A stretch of DNA of 37,546 nucleotides from Phycisphaerae bacterium (GTDB lineage: Bacteria; Planctomycetota; Phycisphaerae; UBA1845; PWPN01), in assembly GCA_039961895.1 (NCBI GenBank), contig JABRVU010000355.1, positions 1 to 37,546 of the forward strand. The letters run 5' to 3'. Of this stretch, positions 14,756 to 37,473 are shown piece by piece. The stretch's first letter is position 1, and each line of letters starts with the position of its first letter. The position numbers and the translations under genes were made by a program. Under the pieces are notes generated by a model that was not told the origin of the DNA, searched no databases, and worked only from the letters and a program-made list of their open reading frames with translations.

Positions 14756-14824
14756 GAGCCCATTCCCAAACCCATGTGGAACCGGCTTCCAGCCGGTCGA
14801 GGGCCAGGGTCATGGGTTGGCTTC
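14756..14824 (-). repeat. ~69-bp REP-containing dispersed repeat, copy 2 (overlaps the rsmE stop)
   Basis: Reverse complement reads GAAGCCAACCCATGACCCTGGCCCTCGACCGGCTGGAAGCCGGTTCCACATGGGTTTGGGAATGGGCTC. Confidence 0.75.
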
Positions 14825-16315: not shown

Positions 16316-16446
16316 CTCTTATCCAGAGTGGCAGAGGGAACGGCCCTTTGACGCCACAGCAACCCGCTTTGGCCCCGCCGCCGGCGGCGCCAGTAGGGTG
16401 CTAACTCCTGCCCATGGCCGGCTTTGGCTAATGGGGAAGATAAGAG
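16316..16446 (+). ncRNA. SAM-I (S-box) riboswitch aptamer
   Basis: P1 CTCTTATC/GATAAGAG; ATCCAGAG; TGGCAGAGGG-AACGG-CCCTTTGACGCCA (P2 with kink-turn); GCAACC...GGTGCTAACTCC; P4 hairpin. Confidence 0.95.
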
Positions 16447-16469
16447 GACAATGGCGCCGGTGCCACTTG

Positions 16470-16508
16470 ACCTCTCTCCCTGCCCAACGGCCGGGAGAGA
16501 GGTTTTTT
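16470..16508 (+). terminator. Intrinsic terminator (expression platform of riboswitch 1)
   Basis: ACCTCTCTCCC...GGGAGAGAGGT followed by a T-run; the 5' arm CCTCT can alternatively pair with AGAGG at the P1 3' strand. Confidence 0.9.
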
Positions 16509-16523
16509 GTTGCACGTCATGTT

Positions 16524-16615
16524 CACAACGGAGGCACGGAGAACCTGGAGAAGCCATGTCCTCGGAGTAGAGAACCAAGGGAACCGGCTCCAGAGTTCTC
16601 TTTGTTTCCGCGGTG
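16524..16615. repeat. Long imperfect inverted repeat in the leader of the ThrC-like gene
   Basis: CACAACGGAGGCACGGAGAACCTGGAG (16524-16550) pairs, with G-U pairs, to CTCCAGAGTTCTCTTTGTTTCCGCGGTG (16588-16615). Confidence 0.65.
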
Positions 16616-16643
16616 CAAGCAGACGGGTTCGAGGAAACAGGTC

Positions 16644-17981
16644 ATGAGTTACGTGGTCGGTCTCAAATGCCGCGAGTGCGGGCAGCAGTATCCCGATTCG
16701 CCGCTGCACGTCTGCGAGGTGTGTTTCGGGCCCCTGGAGGTCGAATACGACTATGCGCGGATGCGCGGGCGGGTGACGCGCGCGTCGATCTCGGCGGGAC
16801 CGGCGTCGCTGTGGCGCTACCGCGACCTGCTGCCGCTGACGGGCGAGCCTTCGACCGGTTTCTGCTCGGGCTTTACGCCGCTGCGGCGGGCCCGCAACCT
16901 CGAACGCCGCTGGGGTTGCAGGGAAATCTACCTCAAGGACGACTCGGTGAACTGCCCGACGCTCTCGTACAAGGAGCGCGTGGTCAGCGTGGCGGTGAGC
17001 AAGGGGATCGAGTTCGGGTTCGAGACCTTCGGCTGCGCCAGTACCGGCAACCTGGCCAACAGCGTGGCCGCCCACTCGGCGTTCGTGGGCCGGCGGGCCT
17101 ACGTGATGATTCCGCACGACCTCGAGCAGGGCAAGGTGCTGGGCTCGCTGATCTACCGGCCGAAGATGGTGCGCATCCGCGGCAACTACGACGACGTGAA
17201 CCGGCTGTGCGCGGAGATCGCGGACAAGTACCGCTGGGCGATCGTGAACGTGAACCTGCGGCCGTACTATACCGAAGGGGCCAAGACCTACGGGTTCGAG
17301 GTGGCCGAGCAGTTGGGCTGGAAGCTGCCCCGGCACATGGTGCTGCCGACCGCCGGGGGCACCATCCTGCCCAAGGTGTGGAAGGCCTTCCGCGAGCTGG
17401 TGGACCTGGGCCTGGTCGAGGACGCGCCGTGCCGGATCTACTCGGCCCAGGCCGGCGGGTGCGACCCGGTGGTCCGGGCGGTGCACGAGGGGACGGACAT
17501 CATCAAGCCGCAGAAACCGCGGACCATCGCCAAGTCCATCGCCATCGGTAATCCGGCCGACGGCTATTACGTGATCCAGGCGGTCAAGGAATCCGGCGGC
17601 TGGGCCGAGAGCGTCAGCGACGACGAGATCATCGAGGCCATCAAGCTGCTGGCCGAGTGCGAGGGCGTCTGGACCGAGCCGGCCGGCGGGACCACCGTCG
17701 CGGTCACGAAAAAGCTGCTCGACCAGGGCCGGATTCCGCCGGACGAGTCCATCGTCGTCAGCATCACCGGCAACGGCCTCAAAACGCAGGAAGTGGTGCT
17801 CGACAGGCTGGAGGAGCCGGCGCTGATCAACGCGCGGCTGGCGGAATTCGACGAGGTAGTGGCCTCGACGGCGGGCACGGTTTCGGCCGCTGGTGCCGCC
17901 AGGGGGGCGCACGACCAACGTGCCGATCAACGCGCCGCGGGCTTGAGCCCCCGCGGCGCCCGTGCGGAGCGCGCCTCCTGA
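16644..17981 (+). CDS. Threonine-synthase-like fold-type II PLP enzyme; probable sulfur-carrier-dependent homocysteine synthase
   Basis: N-terminal CxxC..CxxC, SLWRYR, PTLSYKER (PLP Lys), CASTGNLANS, EGAKT, SIAIGNPADG, EPAGG, ITGNGLKT; RBS GAGGA. The specific function is inferred from the riboswitch and neighbours. Confidence 0.88.
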   Translation: MSYVVGLKCRECGQQYPDSPLHVCEVCFGPLEVEYDYARMRGRVTRASISAGPASLWRYRDLLPLTGEPSTGFCSGFTPLRRARNLERRWGCREIYLKDDSVNCPTLSYKERVVSVAVSKGIEFGFETFGCASTGNLANSVAAHSAFVGRRAYVMIPHDLEQGKVLGSLIYRPKMVRIRGNYDDVNRLCAEIADKYRWAIVNVNLRPYYTEGAKTYGFEVAEQLGWKLPRHMVLPTAGGTILPKVWKAFRELVDLGLVEDAPCRIYSAQAGGCDPVVRAVHEGTDIIKPQKPRTIAKSIAIGNPADGYYVIQAVKESGGWAESVSDDEIIEAIKLLAECEGVWTEPAGGTTVAVTKKLLDQGRIPPDESIVVSITGNGLKTQEVVLDRLEEPALINARLAEFDEVVASTAGTVSAAGAARGAHDQRADQRAAGLSPRGARAERAS

Positions 17982-18097
17982 AACCCCGAAAACACACCGG
18001 AGGGACGCCGGCACCGCACGAGCCGGTGGCGAGGGGAGTTTGCGACGGTAAGATGGGTCGATCGGCGGGCCCGGAAACTGATGAGGAGCAGGCGATC

Positions 18098-18367
18098 ATG
18101 CAGGTGCGGATACCGGCCACGTTGAGGAAGTTCACCGAGGGGGCCGACACCCTTCCGGCCGCCGGCGCCACCGTGGGCGAGGTGCTGGCCGGCTTATGCG
18201 AGCGCTACCCCGATTTCCGGCCGCGGCTGTTCAAGCCGGACGGGTCGCTCAACCGGTTCGTCAACGTGTTCGTGAACGAGGAGGACATCCGCTTCACGGG
18301 CGACTTGCAGACACCGGTCAAAGAGAACGATGAGATCAGCATCATCCAGGCGGTAGCCGGGGGGTAG
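18098..18367 (+). CDS. MoaD/ThiS/CysO-family ubiquitin-like sulfur carrier protein (89 aa)
   Basis: MQVRIPATLR...TVGEVL...FVNVFVNEEDIRF...DEISIIQAVAGG*; C-terminal Gly-Gly; GAGGAG RBS. Embedded in ORF-track entry 17657..18367. Confidence 0.93.
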   Translation: MQVRIPATLRKFTEGADTLPAAGATVGEVLAGLCERYPDFRPRLFKPDGSLNRFVNVFVNEEDIRFTGDLQTPVKENDEISIIQAVAGG

Positions 18368-18447
18368 CAGCGTGTGGCATCGTCCGCCAATCGGCGAACG
18401 AAGCCGGCTGACAACCGGTGCCCCGTCAGAGAAGCCACGGGTGAACC

Positions 18448-18984
18448 ATGGCGGTGATCCAGCACGAACTCGAACTGACCTTTCCGGCCGCCAAGGTGGT
18501 CCGGCCGGTGCTCTGCGAGATGTTCCGGAGGCACGAGGTGGTCTTCAACGTGGCCCGGGCCAACGTGACCCGGCAGCGCGGGCACTTTCACTTCACCCTG
18601 CTGGGAGAAGAGGGGGTGGTGAAGGCGGCCGAGGAATACCTGCGCACGGCCGGGATCGAGGTCCACGTGTTGCGCAGCGGGCCGTTCGAGGGCAAGCTGC
18701 CGGCCCGGCCGGATCGGCTGGGCTCGAACCCCAGCGAGCCGCGGGCCGCGCGGAAGCTGTGGCTGACTTATTCCGAGGCCCTTCGCGACCGGCCCATCGT
18801 CTGGGAGATGGCCTGCCGGTTCGACGTGACCTTCGACATCCGCCAGTCCAGCGTGGGCAAGGACGTGAACATCATGGCCGTCCTGCTCGAGGGCCCGGCC
18901 AGTCACGTCGAAGGGGCGATGGAGTTCCTTCGCCGGATCGGCATCGAAGTCGAGCCGATCGAGAAGAGCGTGATCGAGGGGTGA
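18448..18984 (+). CDS. Stand-alone tandem NIL-domain protein
   Basis: Two internal repeats: LTF...RPVLCEM...EVVFNVARANV...LLG......AEEYLR..GIEV and LTY...RPIVWEM...DVTFDIRQSSV...LEG....EGAMEFLR..GIEVEP. Confidence 0.78.
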   Translation: MAVIQHELELTFPAAKVVRPVLCEMFRRHEVVFNVARANVTRQRGHFHFTLLGEEGVVKAAEEYLRTAGIEVHVLRSGPFEGKLPARPDRLGSNPSEPRAARKLWLTYSEALRDRPIVWEMACRFDVTFDIRQSSVGKDVNIMAVLLEGPASHVEGAMEFLRRIGIEVEPIEKSVIEG

Positions 18985-19121
18985 GGTACGGTGCGAGCGT
19001 GGCAACGTGAAAAGGTGGAAGGGTAAAGAGCCGCGTGCTTCGAGCCCGCGCGGTTCCTTCCCAGTCGCCGGATGACCCGGAGCGCGCGACGGTTGCCAGC
19101 CCCGCGGGCAGCGAGTGACCG

Positions 19122-19865
19122 ATGTCGGCCGATGCGTTGGATCGTTCCAGATGCTCTCTTCGGCAGGAAATGGCTTCGACGGCTTTTTCCTCGGCCGTCG
19201 GGGCCGCGTTGATGCTCTACGCCGGTTTCGGCATGAACCTGCGCGGGGTGAGCGGCGCGGGGCTCTATGATGGATCGGTGGCGGCGTTCACCTGGACGAT
19301 GAAAATCGGCGGCCTCGCGATGGCCGCGTCGGCGGTGCTGTTGTATGCGGGGTGGAGGCCGGTCCTGCCCGCCGATGCCGTCCTCACGGCGGTCATTGGA
19401 GCGATCCTCGCGGGCACCGGCATGATCTGGATGGTCAACCAGGACGTGCAGGGCGTTCTCAACCTGGTGTTCGCGTTGTTGTTCCTGGGGGCGGCCAGGC
19501 GGAGTTGGATGGTGTTCAGGGCTTCATCGCGGGGAACCCCGCCGCCGGCCGGATCGTGGCGGGAAGAGGAGCCGATCGGGCGGGAACAGAACCCGCCGCG
19601 GCCGAGCGTCGCGGACCGCCAGGCGGCGATGGATCGACTTCTGGCGGCCAAGCGCCGGCAACCGCCGTCGGAGCCGCCGCCGACCGAGCCGGCGGGGGCG
19701 GTGACGAAGCCCGCCGAACCGGTCGTTGTGCAACAGCAGGAAGCCGTTCGGCCGAGCCCCGGGCCGGCCGCCTCGGCGCCGGCGGACCCGGCGCCGCCGA
19801 CAGCGGCCCTGACGGACGAACCCGCGCCGGAGGGTTTCCTGGCGCAGTTGGGCCGTGATGAATAA
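19122..19865 (+). CDS. Hypothetical membrane protein (about 4 TM helices plus a Pro/Ala-rich tail)
   Basis: Hydrophobic segments in the N-terminal half; low-complexity tail ending PEGFLAQLGRDE. Confidence 0.65.
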   Translation: MSADALDRSRCSLRQEMASTAFSSAVGAALMLYAGFGMNLRGVSGAGLYDGSVAAFTWTMKIGGLAMAASAVLLYAGWRPVLPADAVLTAVIGAILAGTGMIWMVNQDVQGVLNLVFALLFLGAARRSWMVFRASSRGTPPPAGSWREEEPIGREQNPPRPSVADRQAAMDRLLAAKRRQPPSEPPPTEPAGAVTKPAEPVVVQQQEAVRPSPGPAASAPADPAPPTAALTDEPAPEGFLAQLGRDE

Positions 19866-19887
19866 CGGAAGGAAGTCATCGAACGAC

Positions 19888-20961
19888 ATGGCCATCAGTC
19901 AGGCGGCACAGAAAATCGAACAGGACCCCGAGCTGGCCCGTTATTCGCGCCAGATGCTCTTCGAACCGGTCGGCGAGGAAGGGCAGCGCCGGCTCATGGA
20001 ATCCCGCGTCACGCTGATCGGGTGCGGCGCGTTGGGCACCGTCCTGGCCAACACCCTGGTGCGGGCGGGCGTGGGTTTTCTGCGCGTGGTGGACCGCGAT
20101 TTCATCGAGTCCAACAACCTCCAGCGTCAGGTGCTCTTCGACGAGGACGACATCGCCGGCAACCTGCCCAAGGCCGAGGCCGCCCGCCGGAAGCTGGGGC
20201 GCATCAACTCCAAGGTCGCGGTCGAGGCGGTCGTGACCGACGTGAATCACCGCAACATCGAGCAGTTGGGCGAAGGGGCCGACCTGCTGCTGGACGGCAC
20301 GGACAACTTCGAGACGCGCTTCCTCATCAACGACCTGGCGGTGAAGACGCGACGGCCGTGGGTGTATGGCGCCTGCATCGGGGCCACCGGCCTGGCCATG
20401 CCCATCCTGCCGAACGATACGCCGTGCCTTCGCTGCGTCTTCGAGAGCGCTCCTCCGCCGGAGATGAACCCGACCTGCGACACGGCCGGGGTGCTCGGGC
20501 CGGTGGTCAACATCGTGGCCAGCTTCCAGGCCCTGGAGGCCATGAAAATCCTCATGGGCCGGACCGAGGCCGTGGTTCGCCGGCTGCTCAACTTCGACGC
20601 CTGGGACGGGCGCTATTCGCTGCTCAACGTGCAGAAGGCCTATGACCAGGGCGACTGTCCGTGCTGCAAGCAGAAGCGGTTCGAATACCTGGAGGGCCGC
20701 TTCGGCAGCAGCGCGACGACTTTGTGCGGCCGGAACGCGGTGCAGATCACCCCGCCGGGCGGTCTGAAGGTGGATTTCAGGACCATCGCCGAAAAGATGA
20801 AGGCCGCCGCCGGCGCCGAGCCGCGCTTCAACGCCTTCATGCTCAAGGCCGACGTGGCCCCCTACGAGATCACCGTCTTCGCCGACGGGCGGGCCATCAT
20901 CAAGGGCACCAACAAACCCGACGAGGCGAAATCCGTCTACGCCAGGTACATCGGGGCGTGA
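19888..20961 (+). CDS. MoeB/ThiF-family (E1-like) adenylyltransferase
   Basis: RYSRQ, IGCGALG, DRDFIESNNLQRQ, DGTDNFETR, CLRC, CDTAGVL, CPCC, C-terminal LCGRNAVQI...ARYIG; no rhodanese domain. Confidence 0.92.
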   Translation: MAISQAAQKIEQDPELARYSRQMLFEPVGEEGQRRLMESRVTLIGCGALGTVLANTLVRAGVGFLRVVDRDFIESNNLQRQVLFDEDDIAGNLPKAEAARRKLGRINSKVAVEAVVTDVNHRNIEQLGEGADLLLDGTDNFETRFLINDLAVKTRRPWVYGACIGATGLAMPILPNDTPCLRCVFESAPPPEMNPTCDTAGVLGPVVNIVASFQALEAMKILMGRTEAVVRRLLNFDAWDGRYSLLNVQKAYDQGDCPCCKQKRFEYLEGRFGSSATTLCGRNAVQITPPGGLKVDFRTIAEKMKAAAGAEPRFNAFMLKADVAPYEITVFADGRAIIKGTNKPDEAKSVYARYIGA

Positions 20962-20969
20962 TCATCGAC

Positions 20970-22121
20970 ATGCGCGAAATCATCTACCTGGACAACGGCG
21001 CGACCAGTTGGCCCAAGCCGCCTGGCGTTCAGCGCGAAATGGCCCGGTTTCTGGCGGAAGACGCGGGCAATCCCGGCCGGTCCGGGCATCGCATGGCCCT
21101 GGCCGCCGAGAAGATGCTCGACGACGTGCGCGGCAAGCTGGCCCGGCTGTTCGACGCCGCCGATCCCAGGCGCATCATCTTCACCCTCAATTGCACGGAC
21201 GCGCTCAACATGGCCATCAAGGGCGTGCTGGGCGAGGGCGATCACGTCATCACCTCGATGCTCGAGCACAACAGCGTCTCCCGGCCGCTCCAGGCCCTGG
21301 CCGACGCCGGGCGCATCGCGCTGACGCGCCTGCCGATGGCCGAGGGCGGCTTCATCGACCCTGCGGCCGTCCGTCGGGCGGTCACGCCCAAGACCCGGCT
21401 GATCGCGGTCACGCATTGCAGCAATGTGCTGGGCACCATCCAACCGGCCGAAGAGATCGGGCGCATCGCCCGAGAGCACGATCTGCTGTTCCTGCTGGAC
21501 GCGGCCCAGTCGGCCGGTCTGATCCCCATCTCCGTCCGCCGCATGAACATCGACCTGCTGGCGTTTCCCGGCCACAAGGCCCTGCTGGGCCCGGCGGGCA
21601 CCGGGGGGCTCTACGTCGGCGAGCGGGCCGACCCGGCCCCCTGGCGCGAGGGCGGCAGCGGGGGAGACTCCAAGTCGCCCGTCCAGGCCCTGCTCGAGTT
21701 CCCTTATCGCCTGGAGGGCGGAACGCCCAACACCGTCGGGCTGGCCGGCCTGGGGGCGGCGCTCGATTTTCTGCTGGAGCGCGATCCGCACGAATCGCTG
21801 GAACACGAGCGCAGGCTGGCCCGGCTGCTGGTTGAGGCCCTGGCCGATGACGACCGGATTGCGTTGCTGGGCACGCCCGACTATTCCCGCCGCGCCGGCG
21901 TGGTCGCGTTGACGGCCGGAGGCATGCCCACCCAGGAGCTGGCCTCCGTGCTCGACGTGAACTTCAACATCGCGGTTCGGCCGGGGCTGCACTGCGCCCC
22001 CTACATCCACAAGGAGCTGGGCACCTTCCCCGACGGGGCCCTGCGCGTTACTCCGGGGCCGTTCAGCACCGAGGAGGACGTCCGTCGGCTCGCCGAAGCC
22101 CTGCCCCAGATCGTCCTGTAA
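20970..22121 (+). CDS. Cysteine desulfurase family protein (class V aminotransferase)
   Basis: IYLDNGATSWPKP, EHNSV, DAAQSAG, GHKALLGP (PLP Lys), EGGTPN, VRPGLHCAP (catalytic Cys). Alternative GTG at 20958 overlaps the MoeB/ThiF stop. Confidence 0.92.
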   Translation: MREIIYLDNGATSWPKPPGVQREMARFLAEDAGNPGRSGHRMALAAEKMLDDVRGKLARLFDAADPRRIIFTLNCTDALNMAIKGVLGEGDHVITSMLEHNSVSRPLQALADAGRIALTRLPMAEGGFIDPAAVRRAVTPKTRLIAVTHCSNVLGTIQPAEEIGRIAREHDLLFLLDAAQSAGLIPISVRRMNIDLLAFPGHKALLGPAGTGGLYVGERADPAPWREGGSGGDSKSPVQALLEFPYRLEGGTPNTVGLAGLGAALDFLLERDPHESLEHERRLARLLVEALADDDRIALLGTPDYSRRAGVVALTAGGMPTQELASVLDVNFNIAVRPGLHCAPYIHKELGTFPDGALRVTPGPFSTEEDVRRLAEALPQIVL

Positions 22122-34029: not shown

Positions 34030-34204
34030 TGGAGTGGTTTCCGGCTTACCACGGCCTGCGCGGGGGCAGGCCGCCACGAGATGGCGCTGTTATACGGGCC
34101 TGCTGCTCGACGCCTTGTGCGCGGCGGCATGAGCCCGCACAATGGCACAAGTCGAGCTTAGCGAAACCCCGGCGTCGCCGGAAGCCACGTCGGGGAAAAC
34201 GCGG

Positions 34205-35377
34205 ATGACCCGCATGTTTCAGACGATCGTACACGTGGACCCGTGGGACCTGGTCGATGAAGGCATCGACGCGGTGCTGGATCGGCTGGCCGGCGAGGCC
34301 GGCGCGACCGGCATCAGCGTAACGCTGTCCGCTCCGGCGGCTGCGTACCTCCGGCCGCATCAGGGCGTCCATCCGCGAACGTTCCGCTCCGAGGGCGGCC
34401 TTCAATTCCAGCCGGCCAAGGACGCCTATGCCGCCACGCGTCTTCGCCCGCTGACCGCCGAATGGCTCAAGAAGTCCAATCCGCTGATCGAGGTCGCGCA
34501 GGCCTGTCAAGACCGCGGGCTGACGCTGCGCGGGCGGATCGTCTGTTGTCAGAGCGACCTGCTGGCGCCCCGGTTCGACTTTGCGGCGGCGAAGGATGTA
34601 TTCGGCGACAGGCATCCGGGTTGGCTGTGCCCGGCGAATCCGGATGTCCGGGCCTTCCTGCGGGCCCTGGTCGCGGACCTGGCCGCCAACCTGCCGACCG
34701 AGTCCCTCGAGCTGGTGGCGGCCGGCTTTCCGCCGCCGGCGGACTGGAACGCGCATCGTGACGCCGGTTTCGACGCCGGCCCGGCCGGACAGTGGCTGTT
34801 GAGCCTGTGTTTCTGCGAATCATGCCGGCAGGCCGCCGCGGACGTCGTCGATGTCGCCGCCGCGGCCCGGTCGGCGACGGTGATCCTCGAACCGGCCCTC
34901 AAGACCGGCGAGCCGGTCGCGCCGTCGGTCGCCGACCTGCTGGCCGACGACCCGATTCTGCGGGCCTTCGCCGAATGGCGTGCCGAGCAGGTGATGAAGC
35001 TGATCGGGTTGATGAAGAACGCGTGCGGATGCCGCCTGCTGTTGAACGTCGGTCCTGATGCCTGGACGCCCGACGCCGACCTGGCCGCCGTCGCGGGGCG
35101 CTGTGACGCCCTGGTGGCGTCGGCCGCGACGGAAGAGGCCGTTGAACCCGCGATTCGACAGGCACGGACGGCGGCCGGCGCTGACGGGCGGGTTGAAATC
35201 AGCATCGAGGGCGGCTCGCCGGGTTACACCGAATCAGCGTCCCTGGTCCGCTCGTTTTCGACGGCCTTGCGCATGGGCCTGCGCTGCGCCGTCGTCGGGA
35301 GCTACGGGCGGATGCCCCTGGCCCGCCTGGAATGGATCAAACAGGCCGCACGCTACGCCCTGCGCGAGTCGCAATGA
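34205..35377 (+). CDS. Hypothetical protein, probable TIM barrel (GH-like) with Cys motifs
   Basis: PWDLVDEGIDAVLDRL, LCPANPDVRAF, LSLCFCESC, SYGRMP. Start uncertain (34142, 34205 or 34214). Confidence 0.7.
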   Translation: MTRMFQTIVHVDPWDLVDEGIDAVLDRLAGEAGATGISVTLSAPAAAYLRPHQGVHPRTFRSEGGLQFQPAKDAYAATRLRPLTAEWLKKSNPLIEVAQACQDRGLTLRGRIVCCQSDLLAPRFDFAAAKDVFGDRHPGWLCPANPDVRAFLRALVADLAANLPTESLELVAAGFPPPADWNAHRDAGFDAGPAGQWLLSLCFCESCRQAAADVVDVAAAARSATVILEPALKTGEPVAPSVADLLADDPILRAFAEWRAEQVMKLIGLMKNACGCRLLLNVGPDAWTPDADLAAVAGRCDALVASAATEEAVEPAIRQARTAAGADGRVEISIEGGSPGYTESASLVRSFSTALRMGLRCAVVGSYGRMPLARLEWIKQAARYALRESQ

Positions 35378-35457
35378 CCAAGGCATCAAGAGACCCTCCC
35401 CTGACGCTCACCGCCGACCGGCGGAAAGCCGGTTGCACGCGGGTTGGGGGATGGGCC

Positions 35458-35739
35458 CTACCGCCCTGACGACAGCGGGACGCCCGTGGGCTCGTGCCAG
35501 CGCCGCCCGTGGGTCTCGTGGTGTCGCCGGATCAGTTGCCGGACGTAGGCATCGAGCTGCTGCGCGGTGAGCCGGCGCAGCTCCGATTCGCCGAGCGGTC
35601 CGTCGGCCAGCAGTTTCGTGAGCGCCCGGCGGGCCTGGTCCGGGTCGGGGTACATCGCCCGCAGCCGGGGTTGATCGAGGTAATAGTCAGGCAATGTTTC
35701 CATCCGCCCGCCGCGCAGCACCCAGTTGAACCACTGCAT
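35458..35739 (-). CDS. 93-aa hypothetical protein downstream of SAM-I riboswitch 2
   Basis: GGAGAGG-TGAC-ATG RBS; mostly G/C third codon positions; no motif recognised. Confidence 0.65.
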   Translation of the reverse strand: MQWFNWVLRGGRMETLPDYYLDQPRLRAMYPDPDQARRALTKLLADGPLGESELRRLTAQQLDAYVRQLIRRHHETHGRRWHEPTGVPLSSGR

Positions 35740-35865
35740 GTCACCTCTCCTGGCGGGCGAGCCACGGGCGTCCCTCTCCGGGCCGTGGCGCGCCGAACCT
35801 TGACCGCGAAGGACGCGGAACAGGCCGGGCCCACGCCCGCCGGAAGACCTGGTTACCGAATCTGG

Positions 35866-35892
35866 AAACGAAAAACCCCTCGATCAGAGGGG
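35866..35892 (-). terminator. Intrinsic terminator (expression platform of riboswitch 2)
   Basis: Minus strand CCCCTC-TGATC-GAGGGG-TTTTTCGTTT. Confidence 0.85.
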
Positions 35893-35918
35893 CCGCACGC
35901 CTTTGGTTGCTCCAGCGT

Positions 35919-36025
35919 GAGCCGCATCGTTCCCGCCGTCGGGACGGCTTTGGCACCTTGGCAGACGCCGCCAGGTTGCCGGGCGCTTCAAACGGGCCAG
36001 GACCCTAACGCCACTCGTGATGCTC
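35919..36025 (-). ncRNA. SAM-I riboswitch aptamer, variant
   Basis: Minus strand GAGCATCACGAGTGGCGTTAGGGTCCTGGCCCGTTTGAAGCGCCCGGCAACCTGGCGGCGTCTGCCAAGGTGCCAAAGCCGTCCCGACGGCGGGAACGATGCGGCTC: P1 GCATC/GATGC, P2 GGG-loop-CCC, P3 GCAACC/GGTGC, P4 TCCCG/CGGGA. Confidence 0.85.
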
Positions 36026-36079
36026 GCCATGTCATCGACCGCCGGCCCGTCCACGGACCGACCGGCGTCGATGCCCATC

Positions 36080-36108
36080 TGAATACCACATCCTCCTGCG
36101 GAAGTCAA
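36080..36108 (-). promoter_or_regulatory. Putative sigma70 promoter for riboswitch 2
   Basis: Minus strand TTGACT-N17-TATTCA with a TG extended -10. Confidence 0.5.
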
Positions 36109-36183
36109 GACCCCTGGAGGCCGGAAAACGTCCGGCGGAGCGAGAACGGCTTCCCGGCGGCGGGTGGAGCCTGGCGGGATGCG

Positions 36184-37473
36184 TCAGGCGCTGGCCAGGG
36201 GCCGCAGTTCGCGGTTCTGGCCGTCGAAGGTGACTTTCCGCCCGGTCTTGATGGTCAGGTCGCCCAGCACCACCGCGACGCCCTGCTTGTAGCCGGCGTC
36301 CATGTCCGCGTTGGGCCTCCGGCCCGCGCGGATGCATTCGAGCCAGTTGGCGGCGTGTTCGCCGCCGGGGTAGGGCGGGTCGGCGTCCAGCAGCTTGCGC
36401 GGCTTGATCGCGTCCCCGACTCCCTCGCTGGAGATCACCGGGTTGCCCAGGTCGTGGCCGAACCTGGTCCGGATGGTGCCCTTCTCGAACATGAACACCA
36501 TCGTCTCGTTGTCGATGGTGTTGCCGAAGTGGCTGGTGAACTGGGCGTGGAAGCCCTCGGCGTACTCGAGGACCACGACCAGGTTGTCGGGGGCGGTGCA
36601 GCGCTTGTCGTTGTTGGGGGCGTATTTTCCGCCCCAGCCGGCGGCGGCCACGGGGGCGCCGCAGCCGGTGACATAGTGGACGGCGTTGATGTAGTGCGAC
36701 ATCCACCCGCCCACGGCCCCGCTGGTGAACTCCCAGAAGCCGAACCACTTGGCGGCCATGAAGGCGTCAAAGGGCCGCTCCTTGCGGTTGAACAGGAAGG
36801 CCTTCCAGTTGGTGTCGGCCTCGCTCTTGGGCCCGTCCATGCCCATCCAGTAGGGCGCGTGCCAGGACTCGCTGCCTTCCACGCGGAAGAGCCGGCCCAG
36901 CGTGCCGTCGGCGATGACCTGGCGGACGGCCCGGGCCCCCGGCGAGCTGACGCCCTGCGTGCCGTGCTGGACGACCATCTTCGAGGCCTTGGCCACGTCG
37001 TAGAGCCGGTTGAGATGCACGAGGTCTTCGGCCACGCCCACGATGGGCTTCTCGACGTACACGTGCTTGCCGGCGTGGATGGCGTCGGCGGCCATGATCG
37101 CGTGCTGGTGGTCGGGCGTGGCGATGACCACCGCGTCCACGTCGGCGTCGTCCAGGACCTTGCGATAGTCCTCGAAGGCCCGGGGCCGCTGCCCGAAGTG
37201 TTTCTCGGCCTCGGCCGGATAGCCCTCGCGGCGCTGCTTCCAGATGTCGCAGTTGCAGACCAGGGCGGTGTTGTGGGCCGGAGGCTTGATCATCTCGCGC
37301 AGGATGTAGGGCCCGCGCCCGCCGCAGCCGATCAGGCCGAGGTTGATGCGGTCATTGGCCCCGATGACGCGGGCGTAGGAGGCGGCGGTCAGGTGCGTGG
37401 CCGCCCAACCGGCGGCGCCGGTCAGCAGCCCCTGGCTCAGAAAAGTCCTGCGGGTGGCGGATCGTGGTGACAT
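36184..37473 (-). CDS. Tat-exported Gfo/Idh/MocA-family oxidoreductase
   Basis: TRRTFL; GANDRINLGLIGCGGRG; IATPDHQH; GKHVYVEKP; GAGGAG RBS. Confidence 0.92.
   Translation of the reverse strand: MSPRSATRRTFLSQGLLTGAAGWAATHLTAASYARVIGANDRINLGLIGCGGRGPYILREMIKPPAHNTALVCNCDIWKQRREGYPAEAEKHFGQRPRAFEDYRKVLDDADVDAVVIATPDHQHAIMAADAIHAGKHVYVEKPIVGVAEDLVHLNRLYDVAKASKMVVQHGTQGVSSPGARAVRQVIADGTLGRLFRVEGSESWHAPYWMGMDGPKSEADTNWKAFLFNRKERPFDAFMAAKWFGFWEFTSGAVGGWMSHYINAVHYVTGCGAPVAAAGWGGKYAPNNDKRCTAPDNLVVVLEYAEGFHAQFTSHFGNTIDNETMVFMFEKGTIRTRFGHDLGNPVISSEGVGDAIKPRKLLDADPPYPGGEHAANWLECIRAGRRPNADMDAGYKQGVAVVLGDLTIKTGRKVTFDGQNRELRPLASA

Follow-up and report, generated by a model that had tools for sequence, protein, structure and literature searches.

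Few RNA switches are understood as well as the S-adenosylmethionine (SAM)-I riboswitches, also known as S-boxes, whose regulon is generally taken to be made up of enzymes and transporters of methionine, cysteine and SAM. We analyzed a 37,546-nt stretch of a Phycisphaerae draft genome (contig JABRVU010000355.1 of assembly GCA_039961895.1; GTDB lineage Planctomycetota; Phycisphaerae; UBA1845; PWPN01), hereafter called the window, in which a divergent SAM-I aptamer and an intrinsic terminator on the minus strand precede a single open reading frame (ORF) for a 93-aa protein. The mechanism is ordinary, while the target is new, an uncharacterized and very rare protein family; low SAM probably turns on a gene here that has no part in methionine metabolism. 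We consider it reasonably probable that the module is a working SAM-responsive transcriptional OFF switch gating a one-gene unit. If true, SAM would control a small conserved protein that is not an enzyme, which would widen the SAM-I regulon towards signaling, and expression at low SAM would provide a functional handle on a protein family otherwise without a clue.

The SAM-I aptamer and its candidate expression platform

Scanning the whole window with cmscan identified the aptamer (Table 1) as a match to Rfam family RF00162 over the entire model (positions 1–108 of 108), with 46.6 bits against a gathering score of 44.4 and an E value of 1e-7, which bears out the initial annotation of this DNA, made from the sequence alone, of a SAM-I aptamer at 36025-35919. 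Searched genome-wide, the same aptamer had an E value of 3.1e-9, and when 35400-36200 was searched permissively, no other family of the clan outscored RF00162. For 30 model pairs the sequence supplies both residues; 29 of these were standard and 28 sterically formable, comprising six in P1 (interrupted by an A-G two-base bulge), four in P2a, three in P2b, ten in P3, four in a reduced P4 and the single 64-85 pair that closes J3/4 on J4/1. This last pair is G-C versus the consensus U-A, with both sides changed. The model alignment also retains the core motifs, namely the P1 A-U, G-A-G in J1/2, GCAACC, GGUGC, AA in J3/4 and A-U in the P1 3′ strand. The pocket nucleotides, which we take to be the SAM-contacting positions of the Thermoanaerobacter tengcongensis structure, are kept as well (the P1 A-U/U-A pairs, the G of J1/2, C-A of GCAACC and U-G of GGUGC). 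Furthermore, U-G-G in the P2 loop is pairable with C-C-G in J3/4, giving by eye three pairs of the pseudoknot, an element that the Rfam model leaves unscored.

Besides the minimal P4, two departures from the consensus stand out. J1/2 reads C-G-A-G versus A-G-A-G, the same change being present in an aptamer that precedes a ThrC-like gene in a related genome (G016). In the kink-turn (K-turn), the non-bulged strand is U-U-A versus G-G-A, with U-U at positions 2n and 3n, while the 1b-1n G-A pair is kept and 1n is the consensus A. For T. tengcongensis SAM-I, Schroeder, Daldrop and Lilley report that changes at 1n abolished SAM binding and that a G2nU,G3nU variant still bound SAM, with a dissociation constant of 1.95 µM, about fourfold weaker than the wild type (PMC3651934). 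A natural A-U pair at the corresponding K-turn position is described for ribosomal Kt-23 (PMC2790904). With positions mapped through the model alignment, the window K-turn would correspond to the G2nU,G3nU variant, and both this and the J1/2 deviation look tolerated. The window aptamer would then show in nature the U-U K-turn that has so far been studied as a laboratory mutant. In its four-helix junction, core motifs and P2 with a putative K-turn, the element resembles the Bacillus methionine leaders and the crystallized T. tengcongensis aptamer; from typical members of the class, it differs in a score barely over the cut-off, the 2-nt P1 bulge, U-U for G-G in the K-turn and the four-pair P4. 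We regard it as very probably a genuine SAM-I aptamer.

The whole genome contains two SAM-I aptamers, both within the window, at 16316-16446(+) and 35923-36026(-). A recent duplication of the first riboswitch was rejected because the two aptamers are only 55% identical to each other and the first clusters with aptamers of relatives. In a tree of 28 aptamers, the one studied here occupies a very long branch (0.82) and is 45–58% identical to any other.

Downstream, a terminator hairpin begins 28 nt past the aptamer, its stem consisting of six strong pairs and two G-U pairs and the isolated hairpin folding with −12.8 kcal/mol. A terminator scan returned two overlapping sites, compared to 0.7 ± 1.0 in shuffled sequences, and placed an eight-pair stem with T-run at 35894-35874(-), in agreement with the terminator initially drawn at 35892-35866. 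The antiterminator helix proposed alongside it likewise exists as the minimum free energy (MFE) structure, at −15.8 kcal/mol, of 35931-35882, that is, of a nascent platform lacking the terminator 3′ strand. This candidate helix is longer than first proposed, incorporating four P1 3′-strand bases together with all but one of the eight bases of the terminator 5′ strand. In the complete platform, another fold with a shorter hairpin and a seven-pair terminator is slightly favored (−21.4 versus −20.6 kcal/mol). As in known S-box leaders, the platform would use the P1 3′ strand and be expected to turn expression off at high SAM; it departs from typical ones in the merely partial overlap of antiterminator and terminator and in a target that is no methionine, cysteine or SAM enzyme or transporter. 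On these folding predictions, the layout would be that of a classical S-box, with strands common to P1, antiterminator and terminator, which would work only under kinetic control.

The leader further includes a strong 5′ hairpin at 36073-36033, possibly a 5′-end stabilizer; a hairpin between promoter and aptamer had been noticed at the outset. Past the terminator, a fold of 35900-35730 had a z score of −1.87, with 9 of 200 shuffled sequences folding equally well, and in this model a long-range helix in the 5′ untranslated region (UTR) could cover the Shine–Dalgarno (SD) motif. The promoter that the initial annotation placed at 36108-36080 was not confirmed. A sigma-70 consensus scan found no site across 35200-36400, including the spacer between terminator and ORF, and the putative −10 hexamer TATTCA, which is preceded by TG, agrees with the consensus at only three of six positions.

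The 93-aa protein and its family

On comparative evidence, the 93-aa ORF is a real conserved gene. Its G+C contents at codon positions 1, 2 and 3 (0.745, 0.479 and 0.862) are like those of neighboring genes, and no overlapping frame is similar. The ribosome-binding site and the convergence with the downstream gene were found as first described: GGAGAGG lies at 35750-35744, and the convergent gene ends at 35377. Of the window's 22 provisional starts, eight have an SD-like motif, that of the ORF being among the better ones, and no second coding-like ORF lies between the switch and the gene. When 5.8 billion proteins were searched through a word index, the only match was one 99%-identical copy, while phmmer against 1.84 billion cluster representatives found four homologues of 90–134 aa (E values from 1e-22 to 3e-13, 44–57% identity), all metagenomic and situated on contigs of 671–1,456 nt from ENA/Logan. 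A 465-aa internal-repeat protein (P0006, E = 1.6e-4) was dropped from the alignment as spurious. All five family members begin with M-Q/E-W-F-N-W and share 18 invariant columns in the first 75 residues, after which length and sequence diverge. The identical starts and invariant columns indicate a translated, selected protein and fix the start codon. Having been called an orphan, the protein remains one in the sense that it belongs to no known family, but not in the sense of lacking homologues, with four distant and one 99%-identical relative.

By the same sequence comparisons, the family is new and very rare. Profile searches of 279 order, 401 phylum and 401 class genomes, which are overlapping samples, returned the window's own gene only; two weak matches in the order search (E values of 1.3e-3 and 7.9e-3, inside 282- and 362-aa ORFs) were taken as noise. 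A pattern built from the family alignment gave 47 genome, 256 metagenome and 45 viral contig matches, none of them confirmed as a relative. A looser DNA pattern for W-F-N-W-x-L-x-G-G was found at 48 genome and at least 120 metagenome loci, with no match to the family profile (best E values of 0.012 and 0.017). Literature searches on planctomycete SAM-I riboswitches and on SAM regulons with hypothetical proteins, the supplementary tables of PMC9943018 aside, found no such family.

The protein has a mass of 11 kDa and a pI of 10.1, with no conserved cysteine or histidine. AlphaFold2 with the five-sequence alignment predicted six helices at a mean predicted local distance difference test (pLDDT) score of 76, the conserved core comprising 75 residues. 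The structural comparison suggested at the outset was unproductive, with no significant neighbor by Foldseek against the PDB (best E = 2.9), a wide VIA-align search (best Z = 5.5, 7xpc_C) or BFVD (best E = 0.45), and the best match in a PDB sequence-profile search was a designed protein (E = 0.011). The best Pfam match, HTH_91, was below threshold (E = 0.084, 13.1 bits versus a cut-off of 27), and no Pfam family was common to more than one of the five members. Searches of NCBIfam, PADLOC and PHROGs yielded no match for the window protein and a single PHROGs match, with an E value of 0.09, for one homologue. The gene is thus not a remnant of a known met gene, as it matches no family in these four collections and its four homologues begin at the same start.

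Among the 50 fold matches listed, 11 were extracytoplasmic function (ECF) sigma factor or sigma-like chains with Z of 3.8–4.7, and the Atlas structural matches had TM scores of 0.55–0.58. ECF sigma region 2 was the one theme that recurred among these weak fold matches, but such Z scores are noise level for helical bundles. The protein is like ECF sigma region 2 (PF04542) as a similar-sized small helix bundle, but differs in having no sequence relation and no region 4; a region 2 identity was rejected at the sequence level, with an hhalign probability of 0.1% against ten region 2 segments from this genome. The genome is predicted to encode many ECF-type sigma factors because a genome-wide PF04542 search found at least 30 places, none inside the window. 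A phage integrase N-terminal SAM-like/core-binding domain (PF02899 kin) was likewise unsupported; it was indicated only by language-model feature scores of 0.87–0.88 and had no Pfam match at E ≤ 5 in the five members. The product is most likely a small basic all-helical soluble binding or regulatory protein, acting on protein or nucleic acid and neither enzyme nor transporter.

Fifteen studies of bioreactor, sludge, hot-spring and soil material contributed 20 listed sequencing runs that contain parts of 35300-36300. Strain variation was compared in four runs aligned at 85% likeness, in which two haplotypes appear. The ORF has four variable sites; two are synonymous, and the others replace a residue, namely G86S, which falls in the variable tail, and Q60R, which falls in a variable column. 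Four further sites, none compensatory, lie in the UTR, and the terminator stem-loop has a single strain difference, located in the loop (35883); the aptamer and the 5′ hairpin have no listed differences. In the second haplotype, represented by hot-spring and sludge runs, 36075-36151 is swapped for 80 unlike letters between flanks that are 95–99% alike. The putative promoter stretch is therefore not conserved at ≥85%. Likeness resumes at 36074, exactly at the 5′ hairpin and the presumed transcript start. In addition, a 368-nt metatranscriptome contig corresponding to 35539-35906 joins terminator, UTR and ORF start. At a depth of 2.6, and with DNA carry-over possible, it gives a weak hint of read-through transcription.

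Table 1 Features of the riboswitch locus and its neighbors in the window
Feature	Position	Strand	Details
GFO/IDH/MocA-type oxidoreductase gene	37473-36184	minus	Upstream neighbor of the riboswitch/ORF module
Putative promoter (TTGACT, 17-nt spacer, TG-n-TATTCA)	36080-36108	minus	By eye; TTGACT at 36108-36103
Strong 5′ hairpin, ~19 pairs	36033-36073	minus	In MFE and centroid folds of 36080-35860
SAM-I (S-box) aptamer, divergent	35923-36026	minus	RF00162; P1 with 2-nt bulge, variant K-turn, short P4
Candidate antiterminator helix	35887-35928	minus	5′ strand 35928-35925 and 35922-35912; 3′ strand 35901-35887
Intrinsic terminator with T-rich tail	35864-35894	minus	Stem-loop 35894-35874, 8 pairs, 5-nt loop
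5′ UTR, 124 nt	35740-35863	minus	Terminator to start codon; SD-like GGAGAGG at 35750-35744
93-aa protein gene	35458-35739	minus	ATG start, GGAGAGG 4 nt upstream
REP-like intergenic repeat with hairpin	35413-35459	minus	Directly 3′ of the 93-aa ORF stop, between the convergent genes
411-aa gene, no family	34142-35377	plus	Converges on the 93-aa ORF

Proposed switching and competing explanations

From this arrangement, we infer a response to SAM, kinetic control, co-transcription of leader and gene, translation and a role for the protein. Transcription would start near 36075. With SAM bound, P1 would be closed and hold 35928-35923, possibly to 35919, leaving the 3′ half of the platform free; the eight-pair terminator would form, and polymerase would stop in the T-run at about 35870. 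At low SAM, the P1 3′ strand would pair with 35901-35887 and occupy most of the terminator 5′ strand before the terminator 3′ strand emerges. Polymerase would then continue through the 124-nt UTR, and the 93-aa ORF would be translated by way of its good SD motif and ATG.

Several observations weigh against such a switch. The aptamer scores 2.2 bits over the cut-off, versus 77–88 bits for the other aptamers of the order, and has an irregular P1, only four pairs in P4 and three pseudoknot pairs evident by eye. The platform is no clean thermodynamic two-state switch: a terminator of seven to eight pairs is in the MFE fold with P1 either enforced or blocked, so the switch would have to be kinetic. 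A platform difference at 35896, found in one run at a depth of 2.4, weakens the top hairpin of the antiterminator. The lack of variation in the aptamer is not significant, as about two differences would be expected in 104 nt at ~2% divergence and the comparison amounts to a single alternative haplotype. No promoter passed the scan, and the ORF may instead be co-transcribed with the upstream oxidoreductase gene. Moreover, 135 nt separate the terminator stem from the start codon. For the protein, neither a family nor a significant fold match indicates a specific function. Lastly, the link between riboswitch and ORF is known from one genome and its strains, which, together with the rarity of the family, limits the value of the finding.

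The same irregularities could mark a decaying or repurposed SAM-I descendant that is blind to SAM, in which case the terminator would be a leaky constitutive attenuator or the terminator of an upstream transcript, and the gene would be SAM-independent. The 46.6 bits, the long branch with its 45–58% identities, a terminator that is in the MFE fold whether or not P1 forms, the bulged P1, the minimal P4 and a K-turn without an A-G pair all fit this explanation. Decay would, however, predict lost pairs, and the aptamer retains all helices and core motifs, with a two-sided change at the 64-85 pair. In addition, the K-turn variant is tolerated in the reported binding experiments (PMC3651934), and, more weakly, the aptamer is without listed strain differences while its flanks vary. 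We judge SAM-blind decay unlikely.

It is very improbable that aptamer and terminator yield only a short stable riboswitch-derived small RNA, with the ORF served by a promoter of its own in the 124-nt spacer. The spacer is long and the most strain-variable part of the locus, and the RNA-library contig stops at 35906, short of the aptamer, but contig ends at a depth of 2.6 are uninformative. The contig also spans the terminator, unlike a transcript begun in the spacer, and the sigma-70 scan found no promoter-like site there.

A SAM-I switch lying 3′ of a gene that converges on it, with read-through antisense to that gene, has a precedent in the S-box-controlled antisense RNA described for the ubiG-mccBA operon of Clostridium acetobutylicum (PMC2566862 and PMC9943018), from which the window differs in having a conserved protein-coding gene between switch and convergent gene and in the latter's lack of a known sulfur role. 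We give scarcely any credence to an antisense or dual role in the window, by which SAM-controlled read-through would run into the convergent 411-aa gene and lower its expression: the convergent gap measures only 80 nt, no minus-strand T-run terminator follows the ORF and 25 of 26 related genomes have conserved the 411-aa gene, but the ORF is conserved as a protein, a hairpin resembling repetitive extragenic palindromic (REP) elements lies between the convergent genes, the 411-aa protein has no recognizable SAM link, relatives retain its gene without such a module, and antisense-acting switches are rare, at 56 versus 8,039 sense-acting SAM-family riboswitches in Table 1 of PMC9943018.

SAM-I targets in the phylum and genomic setting

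SAM-I aptamers have a patchy distribution in this lineage: of 41 close relatives, the window genome included, six have one, as do neither of two same-genus genomes and 20 of 151 genomes of a spread phylum sample. In four of the five relatives with SAM-I (G005, G012, G016 and G020), the aptamer precedes a ThrC-like gene, and in the fifth a homoserine dehydrogenase gene. We compiled 24 aptamer loci, 23 from the phylum sample, with the window's two left out, and one from the close relatives, and defined the target of each as the longest ORF starting ≤450 nt downstream of the aptamer. Eighteen loci were textbook cases: eight ThrC-like PALP enzymes, which made this the commonest target, seven homoserine dehydrogenases and one each of a Cys/Met pyridoxal phosphate (PLP) enzyme, a MetX-like hydrolase and a YitJ-like protein. 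Two were sub-threshold matches. One sub-threshold match of 35.9 bits (L233; G428, contig C1, about 328,100-329,700) lies by a CRISPR-like array, whose ~28-nt repeat unit shows in the DNA downstream and in repetitive translations, and is probably spurious.

Four loci, from the two genomes G344 and G428, precede ORFs of 123–172 aa without a family. In G344 (L232 and L228; contig C2, about 1,545,900-1,546,700, minus strand), tandem aptamers of 45.7 and 58.8 bits, 470 nt apart, precede 123- and 163-aa ORFs with no Pfam or PADLOC family, and ORFs of 130 and 69 aa follow. By eye, these units contain a hairpin with T-run, clear after one aptamer and weaker after the other, and an SD motif before each ORF. 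A third aptamer of the same genome precedes a ThrC-like gene. In G428 (L224 and L230), aptamers of 70.4 and 68.6 bits precede 153- and 172-aa ORFs without a family. Their ATG is only 6 nt past the aptamer, which suggests translational control. The gene after the 153-aa ORF is ferritin/Dps-like by eye.

These four loci are like the window in that aptamers at or above the cut-off (45.7–70.4 bits) are followed by a short family-less ORF, and three of their four aptamers share with the window aptamer a G-C 64-85 pair and a CAUC/GAUG P1. They differ in the 6-nt distance from aptamer to ORF in G428 and in their proteins, which have no relation to the 93-aa family (hhalign probability ≤0.8%). The 28-aptamer tree gave no support for grouping the ORFan-associated aptamers in a clade. 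In the genomes compared, SAM-I before a small uncharacterized protein is a recurrent arrangement in the phylum, with different cargo each time.

We regard it as quite unlikely that the 93-aa protein is a SAM-status effector, a small binding protein made only at low SAM and signaling to targets outside methionine synthesis. Such an effector might act on part of the transcription or translation machinery, or on a system that consumes SAM, for instance DNA methylation or restriction; by analogy, the unrelated small ORFs of G344 and G428 would be comparable cargo. In its boldest form, the module would be a guard against sudden SAM depletion, for example by phage SAM-degrading enzymes.

The other aptamer of the window, at 16316-16446(+) with 78.7 bits, heads a cluster in 16316-22121. 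It comprises a ThrC-like PLP enzyme whose N-terminus is a NinF-type zinc ribbon, a ThiS/MoaD-like carrier, a NIL-domain protein, a 247-aa ORF, a ThiF/MoeB-like adenylyltransferase and a cysteine desulfurase-family protein, and judging by these families looks like a protein-thiocarboxylate route to homocysteine. The initial annotation had suggested that the 93-aa protein could be an accessory or regulatory factor of this sulfur-carrier pathway. This idea found no support, as G005, G012, G016 and G020 have the SAM-I/ThrC-like arrangement and a profile search of the order did not find the 93-aa family in them, which means that the protein is no regular accessory of the pathway. The 19-kb distance between the two loci is no evidence for a link.

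The window has a G+C content of 68% and belongs to a draft genome of 5,002,559 bases in 666 contigs, with 92% completeness. In the second haplotype, the loose sequence end at 36152 still contains a short hairpin followed by a T-run, possibly the terminator of the oxidoreductase gene. The convergent 411-aa protein has no Pfam, NCBIfam or PADLOC family. With identities of 27–57% in the genomes that keep it and variable neighbors, its gene seems to belong to the core genes of the order, though its function is not recognizable from families. At 11 related loci, the oxidoreductase and other neighboring genes are absent within 1.5 kb of the 411-aa gene, so no empty-site comparison is possible.

The REP-like hairpin directly after the 93-aa ORF has 6 bp and probably marks the transcript 3′ end. 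A further copy of the repeat lies at about 14758-14799, and its 20-nt core has 163 copies in the genome with at most one mismatch (83 forward and 80 reverse), versus none for a reversed-pattern control. In a same-genus genome (G001), an ORF resembling an IS200/RAYT-type transposase by eye adjoins the orthologue of the 411-aa gene (L022, 720-1331, minus strand).

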